A DNA stretch of 64,000 nucleotides from the IMG/VR virus record IMGVR_UViG_3300025011_000016. One strand, written 5' to 3'. Shown here piece after piece: positions 4,644-50,917 of the stretch. A program made the translations under genes and the position numbers. Below the pieces are notes generated by a model, which was not told the DNA's origin, ran no database searches, and worked only from the letters and a program-made list of their open reading frames with translations. Positions within the stretch are counted from its first letter, which is position 1. Every line of letters starts with the position of its first letter. The DNA is from a virus (Duplodnaviria; Caudoviricetes).

Positions 4644-4784
4644 ATGGGATTTCTTGGTTTTGAATCTAAACGTGAAAAAAATCTTAGGTTACAATTATTA
4701 GATGCTCAAAATGAAATTGGTAGATTAAAAGCCGAGAAGGAAGGTATTCCATTTTTCGGCACAAAATATTCTGATTCTGAGTAA
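4644..4784 (+). CDS. Possible 46-aa protein (MGFLGFESKR...)
   Basis: Short ORF directly after the preceding stop; weak RBS. Confidence 0.35.
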   Translation: MGFLGFESKREKNLRLQLLDAQNEIGRLKAEKEGIPFFGTKYSDSE

Positions 4785-4837
4785 AATTATGTGTTAATAC
4801 GAGACTTATAAATAGTGGCGATAACCAAGCCTGTTAA

Positions 4838-4968
4838 TAATATTTATAAGTTGTAAAAAATCTTTATCGACTAACGTAAATAAAGATTTTCGCCGTTGGT
4901 CGGACGGTTTAAAGAACCTTAAACGGTTAAGTTATTATGGTATCTAACTAATACTACTAACACGACAG
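4838..4968 (+). ncRNA. Orphan TnpB omegaRNA scaffold / element right end without tnpB
   Basis: Near-identical to the 3' ends of both tnpB elements (13519-13649 and 49444-49574, approx.), ending in the same CTAACACGACAG. Confidence 0.8.
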
Positions 4969-8540: not shown

Positions 8541-10630
8541 GTGTTAATGTCAAATGATGATATACGTTCAGTTATATTAGTTGATGAATGGGAACCTGAA
8601 GAAAGGGATGTGATTATCCGACATGATGGAAAACTAGTAATAATACCATTTGACAAAATATTTAACAAGGATAATATAACAAGTTTAAATACTTTTGTTA
8701 TTAAAAAAGAATCATATGTGAAACGTTTGGATCATGTACTGAATAAAGATGGCACTATATCTAAAGGTATATGTCATTATCTAAATTATTTCATTAAGTA
8801 TTATGATTTAGATAATGAGTTATTATTGTCATATATAAAACTCAAATACATTATTGACAATAAGAAAAAGTCTATTAAGTTAATATCTTTCATCAAGATG
8901 TTGTATTCTATTCTGTTTACAGAATCATTAAAGAATAAAATACGACACTTAGTAGAAGACAATTACCATGTTGATGTTACTTCACATAATGGTATTAAAT
9001 ATACCAAATCAATGGAATTTACAAATGAACATGCAAAACTATTAATGATGATCTCAATGAGTATGAAGATAATGGTTCCTATCATATTTCATTTTATCAA
9101 TTCGTCATCTATGTTAAAGGAACCGAATTATATCTTTCAATTTTATGAACGATTGTTCTATATGTATAAATATGATGAAGAGGTTGATATCTATAATAAA
9201 CTATGGGTATCTACATTGGCTAAAGTTAATGTGAATGCTACAAAACATCGAGTTATATGGGACCAGCGAGAAATATTTGGAACAGATCCGTTAATAGAGC
9301 TTGATAAACTATTAAAGGAGAAGATAATTTCTGAAACTATGTTCAAATATACATTTGATAAAAACATTATCAGTTTTAACAGTGTGGTAAAATAATCTAA
9401 TGCCACCTTTTCTTTAACTGACGGGAAGTTCCTTATAGCTTAAACTACTTAATCGTAATAATGTTTAAGATTGGATAATCCGCAGCCAAGATTCTTATAT
9501 AAGAATAAGGTTCAACGACTAGAGTGTGACTCGTAGATCTATAGTTTAGATTGAAATAAGAAAACTCATCTTAATTAAGATGAGAAGATATAGTCTTATA
9601 TCCTATATAACTATAGGGAAGTTCATAAGAGAACTGCATAGATTAACAACCTATGTGAACACGATGCTTAGAAAAACAGCTTGGTTACTTCATACGAGAA
9701 CCTTATGAATTCTCATTAATTGAGTTAAACAATAAAAAAGATCTCGACGGTTTTTTATAGAAGCCGGTTTTCTCTTAACTGACGGGAACTTCCTTATAGC
9801 TTAAACTACTATAAGTAATAATGTTTAAGATTGGACAATCCGCAACCAAGATTCTTAATACAAGAATAAGGTTCAACGACTAGAGTGTGACTCGTAGATT
9901 TATAACTAAATCGAAGTGGAGAAACTTCATAATATTATGAAGAAGATATAGTCTATTATCCTAAAGTAATTTAGGGAAGTTCATAAGAGAACTGTATAGA
10001 GTTATAATCTATATGAATATAAAGTTATCAGGATTAGATAAGCTTGAGATTAACAGTAATAAGATTGATGAATCTTTAATTATATTATCTGGGATTAATA
10101 TAAAGAAAACTATTAAGAGAATTAAGAATAAAATGAAAGTTAAGATCAGTGAAGATGAATTAGAATATTATAAGATCAATCATCACATTAATAAATTTCA
10201 TGTTAGTCTCATATTCTTTTTCTATGCTAGACATTTTGGTAATTATCGAGATCTTAATCTATTAACCCGAAGACAATATTTAACCTTACTAATACTTCTT
10301 AAACGTAAATTACAAATCCAAGGAAATACTTACTTACCCCAGGTTTTAACAAGTAACATTGAAGGTAAATTAAATACTCGTACAATTCAAAATACTAAAT
10401 TCTTAATGAAGATTGAAAATTCTTCTATATATCAATCATTAATGCAAGATAAATTTTCAACTTTAGAAGAATTAAAGAAATCTAATCTAATACTTAATCT
10501 ATTATCAACTATTCTTAATACAACATTTACATGTGTTGATTATGATAATCGAGACAAGTTGGGTACTACATTGGATATTAACTCTGATATGATATCCGAT
10601 GAGTTTCTTAATTTCTTGAATCAATTATAA
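8541..10630 (+). CDS. Putative non-virion RNAP promoter-specificity subunit (AR9 gp226/phiKZ gp68-like); spliced, exons 8541-9388, 9667-9751, 10025-10630 (about 512 aa)
   Basis: Removing two introns gives one continuous frame ...NSVV-LEKQLGYF...KKDLDG-LSGLDKLE...; size and position two genes after the chaperonin match AR9 gp228-gp226 synteny as recalled. Confidence 0.65.
9389..9666 (+). ncRNA. Group I intron (ORF-less)
   Basis: P1 GUGGU/GCCAC with U.G at the 5' splice site; core elements GACGGGAA, AATCCGCAGCC, GTTCAACGACTAGA, AAGATATAGTC; terminal G; P10 UUAGA/UCUAA. Confidence 0.9.
9752..10024 (+). ncRNA. Group I intron (ORF-less)
   Basis: P1 CGGU/GCCG; same core elements as the 9389 intron; terminal G; restores the frame DG-LSG. 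Confidence 0.9.
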
Positions 10631-11742: not shown

Positions 11743-12059
11743 ATTATTATATGAATAAACGTATAACTGAGTTAACACGATATTTTATAAAAGGCTCATT
11801 GGTTGGAGAAATTGTCCCATCTAAAATAGATTCGTTTCTAAATGAATTGAATACCTTAATTATAAAATACTGCGGTGAAAAGTATTATCTTAGTAGTGAA
11901 GTGGAGGCTGTTGACTCTGAGACATATAAGAGTAAAACTGAGGAAATAAATGAAAAAGAAAGTGAAGGATTAGTCACATGTCCATATACCTCAGAATGGT
12001 GTGATAAGCTAAAGGATAAAGAACTTAAGTCAACTTTCATACCTCCTAAAACGACATAA
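11739..12059 (+). CDS. Hypothetical protein
   Basis: Start overlaps the primase stop (GTGA); 106 aa. Confidence 0.55.
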   Translation: MNYYMNKRITELTRYFIKGSLVGEIVPSKIDSFLNELNTLIIKYCGEKYYLSSEVEAVDSETYKSKTEEINEKESEGLVTCPYTSEWCDKLKDKELKSTFIPPKTT

Positions 12060-12191
12060 AAAATGAAGATGGATAAACGATCATTTAAGATTGTTTATCC
12101 ATCTTCTTATATAAAAAAGAGGAGGACTGTGGGAAAAGGTAGTGAGCAATCTACCCTTTCTTAATTATCTGTTTAGTAAATTATTTACCAA

Positions 12192-12246
12192 TATATAACA
12201 AAAGACATATAATTATTTTTTTTAATTATATGTCTTTTGTTATATA
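12192..12246. repeat. Perfect 24-bp-arm inverted repeat abutting the tnpB element
   Basis: TATATAACAAAAGACATATAATTA-T-run-TAATTATATGTCTTTTGTTATATA. Confidence 0.75.
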
Positions 12247-13649
12247 GTCTGTGCTTTAAGGAAACTTAGAGAAATAACTTAATCAGTAGTCTTAATAATT
12301 CATTCCTAATAAGATATTATTATACTTATAACAAATAATATAAGAAAGGGGGTGAAGATAAATGATTAAGACTTTTAAAACGAGAATACGACCAACTAAA
12401 GAACAAGAGATATATTTAAACAAATGCTTTGGATATAGAAGATTCATATACAATAATGCTTTAGAATATTTTAATACCCTTTTAGAGCATAATGGTAATA
12501 TTATTGATAAAACATTAAAGAAGTTCTTTGATAAGTTTGATTATATTACTCATATATACTCTAAGAAAGAAAAGGAACCGGGATTTGAATGGACTCAAGA
12601 GTATAATAAGTCAATAAAGAATGAAGTGGCTAGTGATTTTAATATAGCTATTAATAAGTTCTTTAAAGATATTAAAGACAAGAAACGATGTAAATTACAT
12701 TTTAAAAGAAAGATTCATGGAAATGGTTCTTTTAGAATATACAAGACGAATAAAGGTAATGTTAAAATTATTGATAAGAAGTTATTCTCTTTTATTATTA
12801 ATAGAGAATACGGTCACATGCCATTGAAAACTTTTGAAGATATAAGCTTTTTATATCACTATGATATAAAAACAATGACTATTAGTATGAAGAATTTTAA
12901 ATATTATGTATCATTCACTTATGAAATAGATATCCCAAAGCATAAACATAAGAAAAATATGGTAGGTATAGATTTAGGAATACATAATCCAGTAGTTTGT
13001 TTTGATGGAAACGATATCATAAATCCTAAATTTCCGAAGGGAATTATTAAGAAACTAGAGAAGAAAGTTGATAAACTCTCAGTAATAGTTTCTAAAAAGA
13101 AGTATGATAAACGTAACCCATCAAAGAACTATATAAAAGCGAGAACCAAACTTAATGATATTCACGTCAAAATAGTGAATATCAGAATGGATTATATTCA
13201 GAAGGTATCTACATTCTTAGCTAAGACTTATAGAAACGTAATAGTTGATGAGTTTAGTTTTAAAGAGTTATTAACAGAGTCCGATGGTAATACGCGTATA
13301 AATAGAGGTATACACAGAGTTGGTGACTTTATGTTTACACAGGTGTTAAAATATAAATGTCACTTTTATGGTAGTGAATATATTTTAGCATTACCTAATA
13401 GTACCATTACATGCTCTGAATGTAATCATAAACTTAAAACTAAGTTAAAGTTATCTCAAAGAATCTTTAATTGTCCAATATGCGGACATATAGATGGTAG
13501 GGATAACAATGCTTCTATTAATATTTATAAGTCATTTAAAGGATCTTTATTAACTAACGTAAATAGAGATTTCGCCGTTGGTCGGACGGTTTAAAGAACC
13601 TTAACGGTTAAGTTATTGTGGTATCTAACAAGTACTACTAACACGACAG
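12243..13649 (+). mobile_element. Truncated IStron-type element (tnpB + omegaRNA, intron core missing)
   Basis: Similar to the 47917-49574 element from TATAGTCTGTGCTTTAAGG (end of intron S element) to CTAACACGACAG. Confidence 0.85.
12362..13594 (+). CDS. tnpB: TnpB (IS200/IS605-family RNA-guided nuclease)
   Basis: N-terminal KTRIRPTKEQ HTH, GIDLG (RuvC-I), CSEC/CPIC Zn finger, RDNNASINI (RuvC-III). Confidence 0.9.
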   Translation: MIKTFKTRIRPTKEQEIYLNKCFGYRRFIYNNALEYFNTLLEHNGNIIDKTLKKFFDKFDYITHIYSKKEKEPGFEWTQEYNKSIKNEVASDFNIAINKFFKDIKDKKRCKLHFKRKIHGNGSFRIYKTNKGNVKIIDKKLFSFIINREYGHMPLKTFEDISFLYHYDIKTMTISMKNFKYYVSFTYEIDIPKHKHKKNMVGIDLGIHNPVVCFDGNDIINPKFPKGIIKKLEKKVDKLSVIVSKKKYDKRNPSKNYIKARTKLNDIHVKIVNIRMDYIQKVSTFLAKTYRNVIVDEFSFKELLTESDGNTRINRGIHRVGDFMFTQVLKYKCHFYGSEYILALPNSTITCSECNHKLKTKLKLSQRIFNCPICGHIDGRDNNASINIYKSFKGSLLTNVNRDFAVGRTV

Positions 13650-13769
13650 GATGGAGATATTGTATTTATTTAATATACCAGTTAATGTATTTACTTGCAA
13701 ATCTGTATTCAATTCAGGAAAATTCTCTAAAATCTCAAGTTTGAGTAAATCAAGATAAAGGGACGGCAT
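13638..13769 (-). CDS. Small protein whose stop codon is supplied by the tnpB element end
   Basis: AGGAAGGAG RBS, MPSLYLDL...; the TAG lies inside the element's CTAACACGAC. Confidence 0.45.
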   Translation of the reverse strand: MPSLYLDLLKLEILENFPELNTDLQVNTLTGILNKYNISILSC

Positions 13770-13822
13770 AGTATGGCACAACTCCTTCCTATTTCTAGTA
13801 AGAGTATACCATACTAATGCCG

Positions 13823-13930
13823 TCAAATGCAACCCATATTGCTTGGATCAATAGATAAATATTTATTTTTATCGTATATATTATTAAAAATCTCTTCTTT
13901 ATAAATGTTTAAAATTAATTCATTCATCAT
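13823..13930 (-). CDS. Small hypothetical protein (35 aa)
   Basis: GAAAGGAAG RBS, MMNELILNIY... Confidence 0.4.
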   Translation of the reverse strand: MMNELILNIYKEEIFNNIYDKNKYLSIDPSNMGCI

Positions 13931-14078
13931 ATCATTACTTCCTTTCGTTATCAAATAATTAATAATTTGTTATCACGAAAGTAACTAATAATTCACGATT
14001 TGACAATTTATTAATTATGTCGTATAATGCGTCAACTACGACATTAAATCTACCAAAGATGGATCTGAATTTACAGAG

Positions 14079-14261
14079 TTAGTCACCAATTCCTGCAGGT
14101 ATTCCGCAACCAAACCATATTATTTTGGGACAATGCTCACATGATAAACAAATTCCTCGTCGTGAATATTCACCCTGTTTCGGACATTTCACATCTTTTT
14201 TGGCATAACAATATTCTTGCATTTTTTTATTGCTCAAAATATTTTTCACCCACCTTCCCAT
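14079..14261 (-). CDS. Small Cys-rich protein
   Basis: Six Cys including CLSCEHC. Confidence 0.45.
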   Translation of the reverse strand: MGRWVKNILSNKKMQEYCYAKKDVKCPKQGEYSRRGICLSCEHCPKIIWFGCGIPAGIGD

Positions 14262-14282
14262 AATAAAAGAGCCTTTCGGCTC

Positions 14283-14516
14283 TTATAATCTGCACACACT
14301 TAATACATTTTCTAATCCTAATATCTCAATTGCTTTAGTTAAGACAATTTCAGATTTATCATTATCGTGATAAGTGCATCTACCATTTTTATATGCACCA
14401 CAACAACTGCAATTTGAACCACTTAAAAAACATGAGCTTAAACGAAATGTAAACGGGTTTTCCTTTTTACTATCTAGTTTTTTTAAATACTCTGTTAGGG
14501 ATTCGATAGAACTCAT
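14283..14516 (-). CDS. Small Cys-rich protein
   Basis: GGGAGG RBS before MSSIES; C-x4-C-x-CC-x6-C cluster. Confidence 0.55.
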   Translation of the reverse strand: MSSIESLTEYLKKLDSKKENPFTFRLSSCFLSGSNCSCCGAYKNGRCTYHDNDKSEIVLTKAIEILGLENVLSVCRL

Positions 14517-14596
14517 ATTATTACCTCCCAATATTAGAATAAACTCTAGATAATTTTGTTTTATCTAGAGTTTAAATTGATCATCTTTGTCTGTGA

Positions 14597-16759
14597 CTAC
14601 AATATAGATTGGGTTTTCATCCATGCTGAAATCAAGCCTGCAAAGTGCTGTTTACAGGAATCGGACATTGGATGTATATCGTCGTACATCCATATTTGCC
14701 GAAGTGATAAGTCATGCACCCACACACCATCAACTTGACGAGGGTTTTCGTTTAGATTTTCAAGATTTGAACCCACATGATTCGACCCGTTATAACCTGT
14801 ATCGTGCCATACATGAGACACATCCCAATATCCAGTGGTTGTAATTTGTGTCCTTGCCCTTACGTCACTTTCTTCCCATAGCTTATAAAGTGGAAATCCA
14901 AAGTAATTAGATGCCGTTTCCTCTGCTTCCCAAACATGTCCTAACTGATATCTACTGTCGTCATTGTCGTAATGCCCAACCATTAGTATTTTTATTCGTG
15001 GTTTACGTAAACGTATTTGTTGTACCAGATAAATAAACGCACCCACAGCATAATGCCTATCATTTGAAGTTGCTGGGACGCTAGTATAGGTTAAAGCAGA
15101 AGCGTCTCCTGTGGCATCATTCCTAAAATGCTCGAAAACAATTGCATCCGAAGTAGCAATGTATGACTCAATACGTCCAAGCATAGCACCTGTGATTTTC
15201 CCAGTTATGCTTAAATCACCTTCGATATCCATGGAATCATCCCAACAGTAAGAATATGCCAACCATCGCATACTATTATATGTTGCACCATTATTCGCAT
15301 AAACGTCAATTGGTTTTAAAGCCGGAATCCCTATAACAGGTGTTACAGGGTCTACACTAACATATGTATCTGCAAGCATATCCCCATAGCCAATAACACT
15401 TGTTACTTCTCCTTCAGTATAACCCTTTGCTATAAGATAGGCTTTACGATCCGTTGTTTTCCAGCAATCAAACAACCGCCTACGTTCTTCCTGTGTCATT
15501 GATAATGTACGCAGTACATTTGCCATCCATAGACCAGTTATTCCAAGGTCATCACCCAACTCAGAGGTATCATAAACAGAACCACCTATACGCATCATTG
15601 ACGAACCGACAGCTTTATTAGTCACGGTTGCTCCAATTGCCGTACCGACTAGGATAGGGTGCCCTTGTTCAGGAATTGATGTTCCTAACCACAAAATATT
15701 TTTACCGATGTATTGTCCATTCCCTTGTAGTGATAGTTCTTGCGAAAGTGCTTGCACTTCTCCATATGCTGCAAGTTTTCTTTTCTCAGAATAATAATTT
15801 ACAGTAAGACTTGACGTTAAATTTGTAACATTACTACCGTCAATCGCCTTAATAATAACTGCGACATATAGGTAATCACTATCAAAAGCGTATTCCGTAC
15901 ACCAATCTTGTATAAATTCAAAAGGCTGTCCATACCCATCGTTATTAGCATTCACGACAAGCTGAAAACCAGTTGCCGCCTCAAATCCGCTTAGATTATA
16001 CGTGGGAAGCACAATAAATGCCCTCGTATTGATAATAAACTTATTACCAGTAGCATCAATATTACCAGTTATCAGATTAGCATAAGCACTTATGACATCC
16101 CCACCATACCTAACAGTAGTTTCAACCCTTGACAATATAACTGTGTTATGACTTATAACACTTAAAATGCTATCTAAATCAATCCCAGTTATATCCGCAT
16201 CACTATTATCTTTTACTATAATGTATAAATATTTATGGCTTAACGGGTTTATATACACAGCGTTCGACGCAATCCATCCACCTATTGTTGTAATAGCAGT
16301 TCCCTTTATATCACACCCTTTTATAAGAAACTGATAACCTAGCTTGCAGGACAGGTTAGCGACGAATTCGGACTCAAGTATCACCCTAGCCCTTATGTTT
16401 GACACAACTTCTGAACCATCAGCATCGTTAAACGTGCCAATTGTTAAATCAGCATAAGATTCGGTTGCTGTGCCAGACAACTTATCGCCAACTAAATTAT
16501 CTATTTTGCCAATCTGCCCTCTTATTGAGGTTCCTATATTTGCATAGGTTGCTCCGTCTGCACCAACTCTACCGTCAATTAACTCAGCATCTCCAGTAGT
16601 GCTTCCTGCCGAAAGTGTTGCAAGATTTGTTATTCTTGCGCTTTCTAAATCCAAGTCTACTTGACGTGCTTTTGTTGCTAACTCCTGCACATTCTCTGCC
16701 TTATACGTCATAAGATCTTTCTTAATACCAGCACTTGGATCATACCTAGATTGCGACAT
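14597..16759 (-). CDS. Tail-fibre/receptor-binding-like protein with SGNH esterase domain
   Basis: N-terminal ELIDGRVGADGATY virion-anchor motif; SGNH blocks LWLGTSI, HFRND, DDIHP; GGGAGG RBS before MSQSRY. Confidence 0.65.
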   Translation of the reverse strand: MSQSRYDPSAGIKKDLMTYKAENVQELATKARQVDLDLESARITNLATLSAGSTTGDAELIDGRVGADGATYANIGTSIRGQIGKIDNLVGDKLSGTATESYADLTIGTFNDADGSEVVSNIRARVILESEFVANLSCKLGYQFLIKGCDIKGTAITTIGGWIASNAVYINPLSHKYLYIIVKDNSDADITGIDLDSILSVISHNTVILSRVETTVRYGGDVISAYANLITGNIDATGNKFIINTRAFIVLPTYNLSGFEAATGFQLVVNANNDGYGQPFEFIQDWCTEYAFDSDYLYVAVIIKAIDGSNVTNLTSSLTVNYYSEKRKLAAYGEVQALSQELSLQGNGQYIGKNILWLGTSIPEQGHPILVGTAIGATVTNKAVGSSMMRIGGSVYDTSELGDDLGITGLWMANVLRTLSMTQEERRRLFDCWKTTDRKAYLIAKGYTEGEVTSVIGYGDMLADTYVSVDPVTPVIGIPALKPIDVYANNGATYNSMRWLAYSYCWDDSMDIEGDLSITGKITGAMLGRIESYIATSDAIVFEHFRNDATGDASALTYTSVPATSNDRHYAVGAFIYLVQQIRLRKPRIKILMVGHYDNDDSRYQLGHVWEAEETASNYFGFPLYKLWEESDVRARTQITTTGYWDVSHVWHDTGYNGSNHVGSNLENLNENPRQVDGVWVHDLSLRQIWMYDDIHPMSDSCKQHFAGLISAWMKTQSIL

Positions 16760-17186
16760 AACTGACTCCCTCCCCACTTATAGATGAATCAATATAGATT
16801 TGATTAGCATTGGCTACAGCAAATGTGAATGCTTCCTTGGCACCAAGCTTCACCCCATAAACAGCCAATGAAACATTTACTCCACCGGCGAAGACACTTC
16901 CTGTATTAGTATCCAAACCGATAACAGTTACCTCCCGACATGGTATATTAGGTAATTGAGTTCTGGTTCCAGCAGTAGTGACTAATTTTAATGCCCCAGT
17001 TAATGACGTACTACCACATAATGCTCTATATATACTAGATAACCATCCTCTGGCTCCAGTACCCCCAGTTGCTTGTGATACACCAGTAGCATCAGTTCCG
17101 TCTAATATAGCTGCCGCAGAATGCGTTCCATCAGGATTTTCTACAGCTTTAAATGGTACACCACCAATAAGAATTATTTTATCCAT
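16746..17186 (-). CDS. Small beta-rich virion accessory protein
   Basis: 146 aa, overlaps the SGNH gene, same GC-richer composition. Confidence 0.6.
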   Translation of the reverse strand: MDKIILIGGVPFKAVENPDGTHSAAAILDGTDATGVSQATGGTGARGWLSSIYRALCGSTSLTGALKLVTTAGTRTQLPNIPCREVTVIGLDTNTGSVFAGGVNVSLAVYGVKLGAKEAFTFAVANANQIYIDSSISGEGVSYVAI

Positions 17187-20023: not shown

Positions 20024-23000
20024 ATCATTTTCGAAACGTGTCATCATATATAGTGTATGAACACCCTCATTGGTTGTCTTTCTCATATTACTACCAGCGA
20101 TATTTAGAATATGAGCTTTAGATGTCATAATTTCAATAGCTTCTTTATTAGCTTCTTGACTAAATAAACCCTTTACTGTAACCTGATCCAAAATATTCAT
20201 ATAGATATTTAATCCATACAGTTCTCTTATGAACTTCCCTATATTAATATAGGATATTAGACTATCTCTTCAATAGAATAAATCTATTGTTTTCCCATTT
20301 CGATATATAACTATATCTACGAATTACTTCTAGTCGTTGAACCTTTCTCTTATATAAGAGACTTGGCTGCGGATTGTCCAATCTTCCATTAAAGAAGCTA
20401 TAAGGAGTTTCCCGACAGTTAAGGAAAATACGGCAATACAATGACCGTCGTACATGTAAACTCCATATTTTCATATGGCATGGACTATATCTTCACCGTA
20501 TAATAATAAATTATTAATTAGGTGTCCTGCACTTCCCAACTAACCCACAAATTAGTCAGTACACTACTAACTACTATATAATTATATGATAGTAATTTTC
20601 GTTAGTCTCTACATCTTCTCTAATTAATTTACATATTTTCACATATTGTAATTTTAACATGGGGGTTTTTATTTTGGGTGTATCATTTAGTTTAGACTCT
20701 ATTTTAATCAATATTTCATTACGGGAATTTTTATCACAATAGAATACAAAATATCCTTGAATAATACGTCCAAATCGAACCGCATGAGTTACAGAACTTT
20801 TATTACTATCTATTGAATCAGCAAATGACTTCGCTCCTTGGAATATATGAAATAACCCATCTTTAAATGCAATTATAGGTTTAGATTTATCTCGTTTAGT
20901 TTGTTCAGAATGTCTAAATAATTTTGTACTTTCACTCATCTTATATTTAGACTCACTATTCATAGTTCCACCGACCCCACCTGTTTTCTTATTATATCCA
21001 ATATTAGGATCATTTGCTTTTAAAGTTGATATCCAATATACCTCTTTTTCGTTCATTTCATTTTTAGAGGTGCATGTGTCTATTATACTGCAATCAAAAT
21101 TATTAAATCCATATTCATTAACTATTTTTATAATATGATATAAATTCGATTTCCTATTAAGCTTTTTATACTTATAATCCTTAAGTCGTGAATGTAGATT
21201 TATTGTCTGACCAATATAAATTTTACCATCTATATTATTTCTCAACATATATATTACACCAAAATGTTTTTTCGATTCAATTATTAGATCATCATTATAC
21301 ATAATAACCCCCCTTATTATATATAAGTTAGTATAAAAGTATTTTTTTACAATATATGAATTTCGTAAATCAATTAAAGCTTGACACGGTATTTCCAGCT
21401 ATCCATATTTCAGGACCTTAGGTTCTCTTACGAAGCTTATTCGTCAATGCTTATTTCACTTCTACCGTTAGCATGAGTATTGTGATACCCATACACCGCC
21501 TGTTAAGCGTTCACAGGATTTTTAACTAAGCTATTTCTAGCAAAGGGAGACAACAACTTTTATCTCCGTTTAAACCAGGTAGATATAAATTTGACATACT
21601 CACAGTATCTGCAAATAGAGTGGATATTTCTTCTTTAGGTAAACTAAGATCGATCCTAGGATAATTCGTATAGACTCTATTTCCAATAAACATCGGTATA
21701 GTTTGGTGGGTACTTAGGACTGATATTTTGTTAGGAAAGCTACTGAAATAATCTGAAATAGGATATCTCGTAACGAATACCATTTTATCTGATGTAACAT
21801 CAACTGCCGCTTGATATAAAATATCACACCAAGTTGCCTTCCTTTGTACTAAGGGAGATTCAGTTTCAGGAACCCCTGGTTTATAATCTTTTCCTATAAA
21901 TCGCATATATAATTTCTTCCCATCAGATCTAGGTTCCTCGACGGGAAGTTCAATTGGTGTAAATCTATCGGATACACTAAATATGAATCTATCAATTTGT
22001 TTTTTAAGATATTCTTCGTTGAAATATAATGAGGGATCTTTTAATTTCACATATCCCATGGAACCGTCCGGATTTCTTACAGGATACTTATTACCAACCT
22101 TCTCTAATTCTCTATGGAAGAAATTTTTAACCCAATTTATTATAAATGGTGTAAATAATGAACATGTTTGTGCAAGAGGAATACCAACATGATAAAAATC
22201 TATTTGCATCTCAGATGGTTTATTTGCTTTGAATATAGGTGCAGAAATTCGTTTATTCATATAGAATATAACTCTATACAGTTCTCTCATGAACTTCCCT
22301 AATTTTCATTAGGATACTAGACTATATCTTCAGGAAATTAAGAATTCCTGAACTCCCATTTCAATACAATAATGTATCTAACTCACGGTAAATTAATATA
22401 ACCATATTTCCGTGTGATAGTCGTTGAACCTTATTCTATTAGATAGAATCTTGGCTGCGGATTGTCCAAACTTAAACATTGTTACTTTAAGTGGTTTAAG
22501 TTCTAAGGAGATTCCCGACAATTAAGGAGCTACGTGCAGTAAATCCACACTCCTCGATCCGAAATCAACCGATTTACCCATTAAATTTTTTCTAATTAAT
22601 CCATTCTTCTTTTCTATTCTACCTTTGAGCAAATCATAAATTTCTACTAAGACTTCCTGAACCTTAGCCCTAGTTCCATTAAGTACAAAATCAAAATTAT
22701 TGGAGTTCCTCAACACAGTTGCGAATCTTAATAATTTAGCGTACTTATCATTGATCTCATGATGACTAATCTTACCCTGTGTTGCTGATTGTAAATTAAC
22801 ATCACGATAGAATGCTGGCACTACAATCCAGTACTCAGTAAATAAAGTATCTTTATCATACGATCTCAGCAAGTCAATTCTTTCACTACGTATAGAACTG
22901 GCATTCTTTTCAAAGTTTATTTTTTCCCAATTTTTATATAAGAATTCTAATCCAGTCTCACCAGATTCCTCAGCTTCAACCAATTGTCCATTTTTATCTA

Positions 23001-29335: not shown

Positions 29336-29756
29336 ATGTATAAATCATTTAAATTTCGTATATATCCTAATAATGAAACAAAGTAATATTATTGATAAAA
29401 TAATGGGGTGTACTCGATTCGTATATAATTATTTTCTTAATTTAAAAATTGAATATTATGAGATTAATAAAACCACTTTTACTTATAATATGTGTAGTAA
29501 AGAATTAACAGCATTAAAGAAAATTAATCCATGGTTGAAAGAAGCTGACTCTGTGTCCCTTCAACAATCAATAAGAGATTTAGATAATGCTTATCAAAAA
29601 TTCTTTAAAGAGAAAACAAATTTTCCAAAATTTAAGAGTAAGAAGAGGCCAAAACAAAGTTATCGAACTAATGCTAATAAGAATAGAAGTATTCTTATAA
29701 AAGATAATACAATACGTTTACCCAAACTTGGTTGGATACGATTTTGTAAAAGTTAA
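29336..29756 (+). pseudogene. tnpB: Frameshifted, truncated tnpB (second IS605 lineage)
   Basis: MYKSFKFRIYPNNE, then +1 A, then QSNIIDKIMGCTRFVYN...PKFKSKK...LPKLGWI; ends before RuvC. Confidence 0.85.
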
Positions 29757-46592: not shown

Positions 46593-49500
46593 ATGACTAT
46601 ACTACAAAAAGATTACAGTAGTAATTATTCAATAAAAGAATTAGCTATAAATGACATAGCTCCTAAATATTTTGATATGGTTGATATTAATCAATTAAAT
46701 ATTGGAATGTTTGGTTATAGTACAGAAATGATATCCAATACGACTGAAGATACATTTAATGCAGTTTCAATATTCTTGAAAGAAATGTTTCCTAATAAAG
46801 CTATATTACCAGAATCAATTTATAATTATGCATCATTATTTCAATTAGATAATTTATTTGCAACGCCTGCAAGTACGTATATGATGTTATTTATCAATGA
46901 GAAAGATATAGTTAATTTGGGGATAAATAAAGGTTCTTTCTATGAGTTTATATTAGATTCCGATCTAGTAATAGACATTGAAGATAAACGATTTATGTTG
47001 GATTATAATATAGTTATAACAGCCAAACCATATAAGACAGATTATATTTTTACAGCTCAATATAAATTAGATTTTACAAATTCATTGAGTGATGAAAATG
47101 GTCCGTATATATTAAAAGCTAAAAGAATAAATTATACTGGGAATAAATATTTAGGTTTATTTGTTAAGGTTAGACAATTAAGTAAAACATCTATAAGTGA
47201 ACAAGTATTCACTAATGATAAAATTAACTTTCCTACATTCTCACTTAATTTTGTAGATCAATTAGCAAATTTTGAAATATATTATAAGTCACCAGATTCA
47301 TCTGATTTTATTCAACTGAAAAAAAGAGTTGTCAATACACCGGCTATAGATACTCCATTCTGTTATTATACCGTTAAAAATCAAAATGAAATTGTTATCA
47401 GTTTCTCAACACTCAGTAAATACTTTCAACCAAAATTTAATTCGGAATTTAAAATAGACCTGTATACAACGACTGGAAGTGCTGGTAATTTTCCTGCATA
47501 TACAGGTACTGAAGTAAATGTTATTCCTAAATCTGAAATATATACGTATAATAATGGTATTGTCATATTTGCTATACCACAGTCTGATAGTGTAGGTGGG
47601 TCTGATTATTTAGACATTGAAGAATTAAGATCGATTGTAGTTGAAAAATTCTCTACTGTTGATTCATATACTAATGAGAATGATTTACAAGTATATTTCA
47701 CTAATTTTAAATATAGATATGGTAATGAGATATTATTTATAAAAAAAAGAGATGACGCATTTGAAAGATTATTTTCATCATTTGCGTTACTGAAAGATGA
47801 GAATAATGATATTTATCACACTAACACATTACATGCAATTATTATACCAAGTGAATTCGATACCATATATATTCAAAATAAGTTACTAGTTTTAAAACCA
47901 GGACATCTTTTTAGATTCTAATATGAGTCTCGTTGCATAGTAATATGCAATTGCAACTACTTTAATTGCGGGAAACTCCTTATAGCTTAAACTGATATAA
48001 ATATAAACAAAGTTTAAGATTGGACAATCTGCAGCCAAAGATCTATTTATAGATTTAGGTTCAACGACTAGAACGTAAAGTTCGTAGGGCTCAAGTGAGT
48101 GGGTGAGAATCCCTTAAATCGAAATGGGTAGCCCCAGTATAACAACGTTATAATGGGTGAAGATATAGTCTGTGCTTTAAGGAAACTTAGAGAAATAACT
48201 TAACCGTAAGTCTTACTAATTCATTCCTAATAAAATATTATTATGGGTATAACAAATAATATAAGAAAGGAGGTGAATAAAAAAAATGATTAAGACTTTT
48301 AAAACAAGAATACGACCGACTAAAGAACAAGAAGTATATTTAAATAAATGCTTTGGATATAGACGATTTATATATAATAATACCTTAGAGTATTTTAATA
48401 AGATCCTAGAATTCAATGGTAATATTATTGATAAGGATTTAAAGAAGTTCTTCGATAAATTTGATTTTATTACTCATATATATTCTAAGAAAGAAAAAGA
48501 ACCGGGATTTGAATGGACTAAAGAATATAATAAAACTGTAAAGAATGAAGTGGCTAGTGATTTTAATATAACTGTCAACAAGTTCTTTAAAGATATTAAA
48601 AATAAGAAACGGTGTAAACTTCATTTTAAAAGAAAGATCCATGGTAATGGATCATTCCGAATATACAATAAGAATAAAGGTAACGTTAAAATTATTGACA
48701 AAAACAAATTCTCTTTTATTATTAATAGAGAATATGGTCATATGTCATTGAAAACTTTTGAAGATATAAGTTTCTTATATCAATATGAAATAAAAACAAT
48801 GACTATTAGTATGAAGAATTTTAAATATTATGTATCATTTACATATGAGTTAGATGTCCCAAAGCATACTCATACGAAAAACATAGTGGGTGTAGATCTA
48901 GGAATACTTAATCCGGTAGTTTGTTTTGATGGAAAAGATATCATAAATCCTAAATTCCCAAAGGGAATTATTAAGAAACTAGAGAAGAAAACCGATAAAC
49001 TTTCAACGATAGTTTCTAAAAAGAAGTATGATAAGTACGATCCATCGAAAAACTATATAAAAGCGAGAACCAAGCTTAATGATATTTATATTAAAATAGT
49101 GAATATCAGAATGGATTATATTCAGAAGGTTTCAACCTTCTTAGCTAAGACTTATAGAAACGTAGTAGTCGATGAGTTTAGTTTTAAAGAATTACTTACA
49201 GAATCTGATGGTATTAAGCGTATTAATAGGGGTATTCATAGAGTTGGTGCCTTTACGTTTACACAAGTGTTAAAATATAAATGCTACTTTTACGGTAGCG
49301 AATATATTTTAGCGTTACCTAATACTACTAACACATGCTCTGAATGTAACCATAAACTTAAAACTAAGTTAAAGTTATCTCAAAGAATCTTTAATTGTCC
49401 AATATGCGGGCATATAGATGACAGAGATAATAATGCGGCTATTAATATTTATAAGTCGTTTAAAGGATCTTTATTAACTAACGTAAATAAAGATTTCGCC

Positions 49501-50917
49501 GTTGGTCGGACGGTTTAAAGAACCTTAAACGGTTAAGTTATTGTGGTATCTAACGAATACTACTAACACGACAGATAAGGTAGATACCAATGCCGTTGAG
49601 TTAATTCCTATCCTGACTATTAAGGATGATATTGGTGTATTAACTGATGACTATATATTCACAAATTTATTTCTAGTTACAGTTAGTAAATCTCCAGGGA
49701 TTATTGGTTACTATATTAATTCAATTGATGATAAATTGTCTCTAGATTACGAGTATGTGAATTCAGATTCCATAGTACAATTCATATGTAATAACATCAA
49801 TATATATAGGAATGCAATTGCAGGTGAGGATGTATACAAGATTACAGTCGCATTAACTCCAACCTTAGATGACGGTGAAGTAATGGCAACTAAAGTTGCC
49901 AATATTATTACAGACTTAGGAATATTAAAGATAAAAATAATGGTGGAAGATAATGGAGTGGAGATTTGCTATTTAGATACAATAATGACAGATTTCGATG
50001 AATTAACGAATATATATACATTTGAAGCAACTTTGAGTACTACTGATTACATGACTTTCGACCAATATATGCAAGTTATGAATATTAATAATACTATCGA
50101 TGGGATTATTTTAGTCAATACTTTAATACCTATGTATAATTGTAAATTAAATGTTTATGCTTTCTATAAGTATAGTGAACTTGACGAAGAGGGAAATCTA
50201 TATAAAATACCCCATATATATGATCATATTGCTGAATTACAACCTTATACTTTAACAAATAAATATTCAACAGTAGATAAAAAAGTTAATTTCATAAGTC
50301 CTCTTAATATCTTAAGAAGTATGGTAAACTTCACATCCGCTAATAATGTTGATGGGTATGATGTTACCATCAGTGCAGTTCCATTTGTATCAGCACCTAT
50401 GATGAAAGATCCAATTAAGTATAATTCTTTTATGAAAACTATATTGATTCAGTATGAATATATGCAAAATGCATTATCTAAAGTCACTAATAATTATGGT
50501 ATAGATATGAAATTTTATAATACTTATGGGAGATCAAATAATTTTATTGCAGGTGATCTAGGGGTTCAACTAGATAATGTCAATACTAGAATATATATTA
50601 GAGTTAAACCTAGCGTTGGTTCAGATGTCGATGATTTAATTCTATCATTAAAAGTATTCATCAAGAAATTTATTGAAAGTATAAATGCTTTAGGTTCAAA
50701 TGGGATTTATATATCCAATTTAATTACTAGTGTAGAAACAAATTTTTCCACCGTTGAATATATGAGGTTTGGTAATCTTAATGATTACGATTCTTCGGTT
50801 CAAATAATAGAGAACCGAACTCCCGATATAACATCATTGTCTAAGATTGATAGACAAAATTATGTGCCTGAATATCTAACAATTAGTTTAGACGATATTA
50901 TTATTGATCTATTGTAG
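46593..50917 (+). CDS. Baseplate wedge-like protein, spliced; exons 46593-47916 and 49575-50917 (888 aa)
   Basis: T + AT joins to give ...PGHLFR-Y-KVDTNAVEL...; TTGSAGNF motif of gp6-like wedge proteins. Confidence 0.75.
47917..49574 (+). mobile_element. IStron: group I intron carrying tnpB and omegaRNA, no tnpA
   Basis: P1 AGAU/GUCU; core GCGGGAA, CAATCTGCAGCC, GTTCAACGACTAGA, AAGATATAGTC; tnpB inserted after S; terminal G of ...ACGACAG. Confidence 0.9.
48286..49518 (+). CDS. tnpB: TnpB (IStron-encoded)
   Basis: Highly similar to 12362-13594; GVDLG, Zn finger, DRDNNAAINI. Confidence 0.9.
   Translation: MIKTFKTRIRPTKEQEVYLNKCFGYRRFIYNNTLEYFNKILEFNGNIIDKDLKKFFDKFDFITHIYSKKEKEPGFEWTKEYNKTVKNEVASDFNITVNKFFKDIKNKKRCKLHFKRKIHGNGSFRIYNKNKGNVKIIDKNKFSFIINREYGHMSLKTFEDISFLYQYEIKTMTISMKNFKYYVSFTYELDVPKHTHTKNIVGVDLGILNPVVCFDGKDIINPKFPKGIIKKLEKKTDKLSTIVSKKKYDKYDPSKNYIKARTKLNDIYIKIVNIRMDYIQKVSTFLAKTYRNVVVDEFSFKELLTESDGIKRINRGIHRVGAFTFTQVLKYKCYFYGSEYILALPNTTNTCSECNHKLKTKLKLSQRIFNCPICGHIDDRDNNAAINIYKSFKGSLLTNVNKDFAVGRTV

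Follow-up and report, generated by a model that had tools for sequence, protein, structure and literature searches.

A ribozyme-less, nuclease-intact IStron derivative between genes of a groundwater phage

Introduction

What keeps a tnpB gene intact once the splicing transposon that carried it has lost its ribozyme? The locus described here (copy A, positions 12242-13649, + strand) raises this question. It lies in a window of 64,000 nt, the whole stretch of DNA analysed, which is part of a 118,479-base linear virus record that is 64% complete. Copy A is a 5′-truncated member of a tnpB-only, IS605-type IStron family, and its nuclease gene lies outside an intron, between host genes. It is an intron-free IStron derivative. 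Judged from its structure, copy A should not be able to splice, and excision by TnpA should fail without a left end. Our reading is that a full IStron inserted antisense into the 3′ end of a small gene, lost its 5′ part by a microhomology deletion, and has since been maintained selfishly as a free-standing RNA-guided homing nuclease. We assign this reading as a whole a probability of about 0.52.

Results

The phage and its IStron family

The same proteins were found on contigs of up to 272,509 bases, all from a single groundwater series. Based on the primase, a chaperonin, many group I introns and a motif upstream of genes, the phage would be an AR9-like jumbo phage of ~272 kb. The upstream motif, AACA-N6-TA(A/G), was seen 23 times against 1.5 expected and was compared with the AR9 late-promoter consensus (PMC5312081).

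Copy A is known in one phage population only. Its locus was base-identical across independent assemblies (L010-L013, L015-L017 and L019), so it is not a misassembly. Proteins P0001 and P0125, which look like chimeric assemblies between tnpB copies, were omitted. Two deletions were observed elsewhere: one of 2 nt that frameshifts tnpB copy A near window position 13237 (L018; protein P0123, 3 contigs) and one of 21 nt in a 60-aa neighbour gene (L026). Either may be a strain variant or an assembly error.

The first-pass annotation had called copy A the second tnpB copy. It is instead one of five, which are 84 to 89% identical and are accompanied by a gene-less stump (copy F). The four full copies measure 1,648 to 1,669 nt and follow the target-adjacent motifs (TAMs) TAGAT, ATGAT, TAGAT and TTGAT; the stump follows CTGAT. 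Each of the siblings B to F has its target pentamer abutting the left end. The host genes of the full copies are essential and include a virion gene, DNA ligase and helicase; both exons around copy B match phrog_18960. A Y1 TnpA was sought without success in the 118-kb contig (64% complete) and in a complete relative of 218 kb. TnpB-based searches of viral and metagenome contigs for related loci returned none, as did searches via the upstream 102-aa gene and via the omegaRNA motif.

In all four full copies the internal guide of the intron covaries with the target (AGAT with AGTCT, TGAT with AGTCA; window 47912-47933, L005 2632-2655, L003 2614-2640 and L009 2632-2655). This covarying guide may double as a DNA guide for the transposase, or it may be adjusted for splicing. 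Small group I introns also occur at window positions 9400-10020 and 20190-22580, some of them as tandem introns with a spacing of about 360 nt; one S element (20460-20494) lies directly upstream of another intron. Rfam at its threshold detected just two of these small introns. A 127-aa open reading frame at 29373-29756 with an HTH_OrfB_IS605 domain alone is an unrelated, more distant tnpB remnant.

Copy A lacks the ribozyme and keeps every splicing-independent part

Copy A is homologous to the full IStron copy B (47917-49574) from 12242 (ATATAGTC) to the terminal GACAG at 13649. The earlier placement of the homology start in the intron S element thus holds, one nucleotide upstream of the position first given (12243). 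Copy A is 87 to 89% identical in DNA to copies B and C over 1.3 to 1.4 kb, and both alignments start in the S element. Neither a left end nor a TAM nor a P/Q/R element was found upstream of 12242. The deletion junction reads GTTAT/ATAGTC, and no T-rich pentamer TAM abuts a left end. Since ATATA is common to the palindrome and the S element, the junction is resolved only to within 12242-12246 (Table 1).

As first noted, the ribozyme is gone: no complete group I ribozyme (P1-P9) is present, and what is left is the S tail and P9. Rfam reported no intron at copy A, at a gathering threshold that misses the full copy as well. The S/P9 layout is that of other group I introns of the phage, and because copy A keeps both pieces, it derives from an intron. 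An ancestral intron-free insertion sequence was rejected on these grounds.

The remaining parts are in place, and the earlier statement that the ribosome-binding site, tnpB and the omegaRNA were kept was borne out by sequence, Pfam and a five-copy alignment. Copy A retains tnpB inside P9, the IR stem on both sides and the element end CAG. The IR stem is slightly weakened (12 bp, against 14 in copy B). The omegaRNA stem-loop series is the same in all five copies (z=-2.8 versus shuffles) and is conserved in the gene-less stump too. The promoter-like motif at 12330-12343 is 1 base longer than the late-promoter-like consensus of the phage; it may act as a promoter, although with some uncertainty. 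All parts that do not depend on splicing are intact.

Table 1. Features of copy A, its flanks and two sibling copies (positions in the window)
Feature	Position	Strand	Basis
Perfect palindrome, 24-bp arms (12192-12215 / 12223-12246), T7 loop	12192-12246	.	
ATATA, 5-nt microhomology between palindrome arm and intron S element; deletion junction	12242-12246	+	five-copy alignment
Intron leftover: 3′ half of S element (J8/7-P7′) and P9 hairpin (12254-12271)	12242-12271	+	
IR stem, 5′ arm; loops out tnpB, pairs with 13606-13617	12273-12284	+	folding, duplex, alignment
AACA-N7-TAA promoter-like motif	12330-12343	+	invariant in five copies
tnpB ribosome-binding site	12346-12355	+	sequence; conserved across copies
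tnpB, 410 aa, intact	12362-13594	+	Pfam, alignment
OmegaRNA scaffold and element right end (GACAG); 5′ limit approximate	13530-13649	+	folding
Guide region, the right flank of the insertion	13650-13669	+	homology to other copies ends at 13649
Convergent ORF, 43 codons; last codons and TAG stop from the element	13638-13769	-	
Long hairpin, ~28 bp with G-U pairs	13762-13824	-	-35.9 kcal/mol, z=-4.9
Copy F, gene-less stump; omegaRNA near-intact	4776-4968	+	removal restores 63-codon ORF
Copy B, full 1,658-nt IStron, TAM TAGAT	47917-49574	+	removal restores in-frame host gene

The TnpB of copy A and its active site

Copy A TnpB is 89% identical to that of copy B, carries the Pfam domains HTH_OrfB, OrfB_IS605 and Cas12f1-like_TNB with an intact zinc finger, and aligns to ISDra2 TnpB (PDB 8BF8/8H1J; E=8e-24). 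AlphaFold run on the five-copy TnpB alignment gave a model too poor to use (pLDDT 38). The RuvC triad is D204, D296 and D381 in all five copies (codon 296 at window 13247-13249). The residue equivalent to 296 is Glu in ISDra2 TnpB and in all 116 first-pass homologues. Among the 147 nearest relatives, position 296 is Glu in 123 and Asp in 24, the nearest ones included, and is never nonacidic. By this comparison, Asp at RuvC-II is a trait of the clade that does not set copy A apart, and the unusual D-D-D active site is probably live. A nuclease-dead interpretation of D296 was rejected because the Asp is clade-wide and the position is always acidic. With the terms used, a literature search returned no publication on TnpBs with a D-D-D triad.

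Two changes private to copy A, A322D and D379G, are both radical. Site 379 is Asp in 110 of the 116 and 132 of the 147 homologues and Gly in copy A. These substitutions would weigh against continued function of copy A.

Selection on copy A and the date of the cut

Pairwise dN/dS was computed over 390 codons. The value for copy A against copy B was 0.12 (0.08-0.17), far below 1; against C, D and E it was 0.24, 0.19 and 0.16. The dN/dS check that accompanied the domestication claim thus gave a low ratio, yet full IStrons gave the same among themselves (0.14 to 0.22), and with equal values there the test does not discriminate domestication. Branch omega values were 0.17 for A, 0.10 for B, 0.25 for C, 0.21 for D and 0.20 for E. 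Selection on copy A is no stronger than on its siblings.

How much of this selection postdates the cut depends on the date of the cut, which the intron leftover helps to fix. Its first 41 nt are identical to copy B, while the A branch has a dS of ~0.21, that is, 0.2 changes per site expected; for a cut of the same age as the branch, 0 of 41 would have a P of ~2e-4. Over 50 nt the leftover differs from the consensus at 4 positions, compared with 0 to 3 in full copies. The near-intact leftover dates the cut to the second half of the branch, and since it has barely decayed, much of the selection on tnpB is older than the cut.

These observations also fit the main competitor of our reading, in which the same deletion took place very late and tnpB is a passenger, intact for lack of time and free to decay. 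We regard this account as possible and as clearly the less favored of the two. Along with the fresh leftover, it draws on the radical changes D379G and A322D, on the presence of a second decayed copy (4776-4968), on the tnpB frameshift in one assembly, possibly an assembly error, and on the loss of the left end: an element that is not excisable has no further use for the usual job of TnpB. It demands, however, a narrow time span: a neutral history after the cut can account for the 33 nonsynonymous changes only with a cut in the last ~5% of the branch. The private changes of copy A (10 synonymous to 5 nonsynonymous) resemble those of the full copies, and private changes have already accumulated in the IR-stem arm. 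With the date integrated out, the Bayes factor for continued selection was 2 to 18, a rough figure that ignores survivorship and gene conversion between copies. We lean toward continued function of tnpB since the cut; the cut may also be so recent that selection has not acted since.

How the break arose

The first-pass annotation was right that a perfect palindrome with 24-bp arms is fused to the break; such a palindrome is not unusual in this genome. It folds at about -28 kcal/mol on both strands. The 118-kb contig is unusually rich in long perfect palindromes: 11 have arms of at least 20 bp (20 to 25 bp), most of them at gene ends, and 15 of the 21 longest have a stop codon no more than 13 nt away. 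Upstream of copy A, the + strand gene is already served by a separate hairpin at 12065-12106. The 24-bp palindrome was therefore assigned to the minus-strand unit into whose end the element inserted, probably as the native bidirectional terminator of that unit. Because palindromes of this kind are common and native here, a fold-back scar left by the truncation was rejected. A sigma-70-like site at 12185-12213 did not rise above shuffle level.

We consider it very likely that a full IStron inserted antisense in the 3′ end of the small gene and was then cut by a microhomology deletion. An alternative without any deletion is that the element was born short: excised at a cryptic internal left end, with the short form inserting after GTTAT. 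The sequence AAGAT/ATAGTC stands at the break in 4/4 full copies, AAGAT is followed by AGTCT and a hairpin as at the true left end, and NTTAT targets are known for group A IStrons (PMC4227781). The joined flanks moreover give an in-frame end of the small ORF, with the stop within the palindrome arm. Against this, about 8% of positions lie that near a WGAT by chance, GTTAT is unlike the NWGAT targets of the family, an AT-rich arm stops any frame quickly, and no second copy shares that left end. A short-born element is accordingly unlikely.

The guide and its possible targets

The earlier statement that the guide is antisense to a small gene whose stop is supplied by the element was correct as to position: the 20 nt at 13650-13669 are antisense to the convergent ORF. 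The standing of this ORF as a gene is less secure. Its codon score (z=2.4) gives the idea weak support; a word search found no homologue, and gene callers did not call the ORF. Its strong Shine-Dalgarno sequence (13782-13790) and its start codon are both buried in the long hairpin, which begins where the upstream minus-strand gene stops; the hairpin would be a terminator or a translational lock. If the palindrome is the minus-strand terminator, it lends the ORF mild support as a gene. A perfect sigma-70/sigma-A consensus promoter (12/12) at 14000-14028 on the + strand points antisense into small minus-strand genes at 14079-14531.

Copy A had also been described as retargeted. A new guide is automatic for any IS605-type insertion: the guide differs in all six copies, each being its own downstream flank, and since this is so in every copy, a new guide says nothing about adaptation.

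Targets outside the locus were not found. The TAM plus guide is absent from the 118-kb contig (64% complete) and from the other loci examined, where the best seed match had 2 mismatches in 12 nt and no extension. Scans with the guide or TAM plus guide through viral, metagenome and genome contigs returned only the occupied locus or chance coding matches of 15 to 21 nt, and guide matches in public collections ended at 15 to 19 nt in unrelated coding DNA. The search for TAM plus guide in relatives lacking the insertion, proposed at the outset as a check, therefore yielded no empty allele of copy A in public collections. Copy A lies in an accessory block (11751-17186, about 5.4 to 5.6 kb) between the primase and a head-tail joining gene; the block contains small genes, the tnpB copy and genes of 726 and 146 aa. 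Three related phages (64 to 66% primase identity) lack the whole block, so an empty allele could be obtained only from very close strains.

The guide does resemble an intron element. Positions 13650-13663 match the S motif GATGAAGATATAGT, found in several introns here, at 12 of 14 positions, a level reached by ~1.5e-4 of genome positions. The likeness was noticed after the fact and is probably due to chance. No TAM precedes the S-motif matches, and targeting of intron S elements was rejected on both grounds.

These results bear on the claim of domestication, by which TnpB is kept for the phage, as a nuclease or as a TldR-like repressor, and its guide has been selected for some other target, be it a host gene, a rival phage or the intron S elements. 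The lost left end, the intact ORF and omegaRNA, purifying selection, fixation in all assemblies and the 12 of 14 guide positions shared with the S motif would all suit it. Its difficulties are the lack of any such target in the sequences scanned, of a TAM at the S-motif sites and of a new partner gene, a guide that runs unbroken into the ORF-like flank, selection not above the level of the siblings, and three acidic RuvC residues, where a TldR has lost at least two of the triad (bioRxiv 10.1101/2023.11.30.569447). The claim was not supported, and we consider domestication in this form the least probable of the accounts weighed. Adoption of TnpB by the phage in a broader sense, against competing phages or as a trans supply for other omegaRNAs, is very improbable as well.

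Discussion

In the reading we prefer, deletion followed by selfish maintenance as a homing nuclease, a full IStron would have inserted antisense to the small minus-strand gene, at an NWGAT within its 3′ end; splicing there would be useless for repair of the host RNA. Deletion via the 5-nt ATATA beside the terminator hairpin would then have removed the TAM, the left end and the ribozyme core. The tnpB gene would be expressed from the element's own promoter-like motif and ribosome-binding site, and TnpB would bind an omegaRNA carrying the right flank as guide. During mixed infection TnpB would cut the TAM and flank in uninserted relatives, and break repair would copy the whole allele. Copy A TnpB could also serve sibling omegaRNAs in trans. 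Upkeep would be by selfish drive and not by benefit to the phage. The order of events, expression, cleavage and homing are what we infer for copy A from its DNA. TnpB has roles in both retention and homing (PMC10055086); without a left end and excision the retention role lapses, and cutting of empty alleles or work in trans would remain.

Much of this setting is already described: IStrons, tnpB-only elements, phage IStrons and intron-less IS605 neighbours. With the group A (IS200/IS605-type) IStrons CdISt1 and CdiIStron (PMC4227781; bioRxiv 10.1101/2023.11.20.567912), the family shares a T-rich pentamer target ending in AT, the CAG end, tnpB with a 3′ omegaRNA, an IR stem around the ORF, the lack of a full tnpA, and full siblings that split genes in frame. 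Copy A differs in having lost the ribozyme and the left end while keeping the nuclease. In C. difficile 630, three intron-less IS605 elements occur beside IStrons (bioRxiv 10.1101/2023.11.20.567912). A 2014 survey found that ORFs were lost, that splicing was always retained and that there was no separate IS component (PMC4227781); given that pattern, a ribozyme-less, nuclease-intact derivative is new.

Three other systems come close. The non-autonomous tnpB-only IS605 elements and PATEs (PMC10055086) likewise combine tnpB with an omegaRNA whose guide is the flank, with TnpA, if any, in trans. Copy A differs in lacking both left end and TAM, so that it is not excised and leaves no donor joint for TnpB to guard, and in carrying a P9 leftover. 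The free-standing homing endonucleases of T4-like phages, for which intronless homing is described (PMC2988022), are also intron-free nuclease genes between phage genes, and cutting of an empty allele is what we propose here. Copy A encodes an RNA-guided RuvC protein and not a GIY-YIG or HNH enzyme, its target would abut the insertion, and its homing is proposed only. With TldRs, domesticated and nuclease-dead TnpB repressors, copy A shares a tnpB-like gene with a guide RNA in a phage and incomplete transposon ends; by contrast it keeps three acidic RuvC residues, the zinc finger and the right end, has no partner gene, and has a guide that equals its flank, with no distant target found.

At present copy A is one decayed representative of a known element, seen in a single population of an uncultured phage. 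It shows IStron decay opposite to the published pattern, with the ribozyme lost and the nuclease kept. The clade of TnpBs with Asp at RuvC-II may be of biochemical interest by itself. The family also offers a natural control, in which the same TnpB-omegaRNA occurs with and without an intron and also in a form that lacks the excision route for which TnpB is the proposed guard. If copy A is still cutting and spreading, it would establish RNA-guided intronless homing between phages. If it is indeed maintained or adopted, it would have been caught in the middle of the step from a splicing transposon to a stand-alone programmable phage nuclease.
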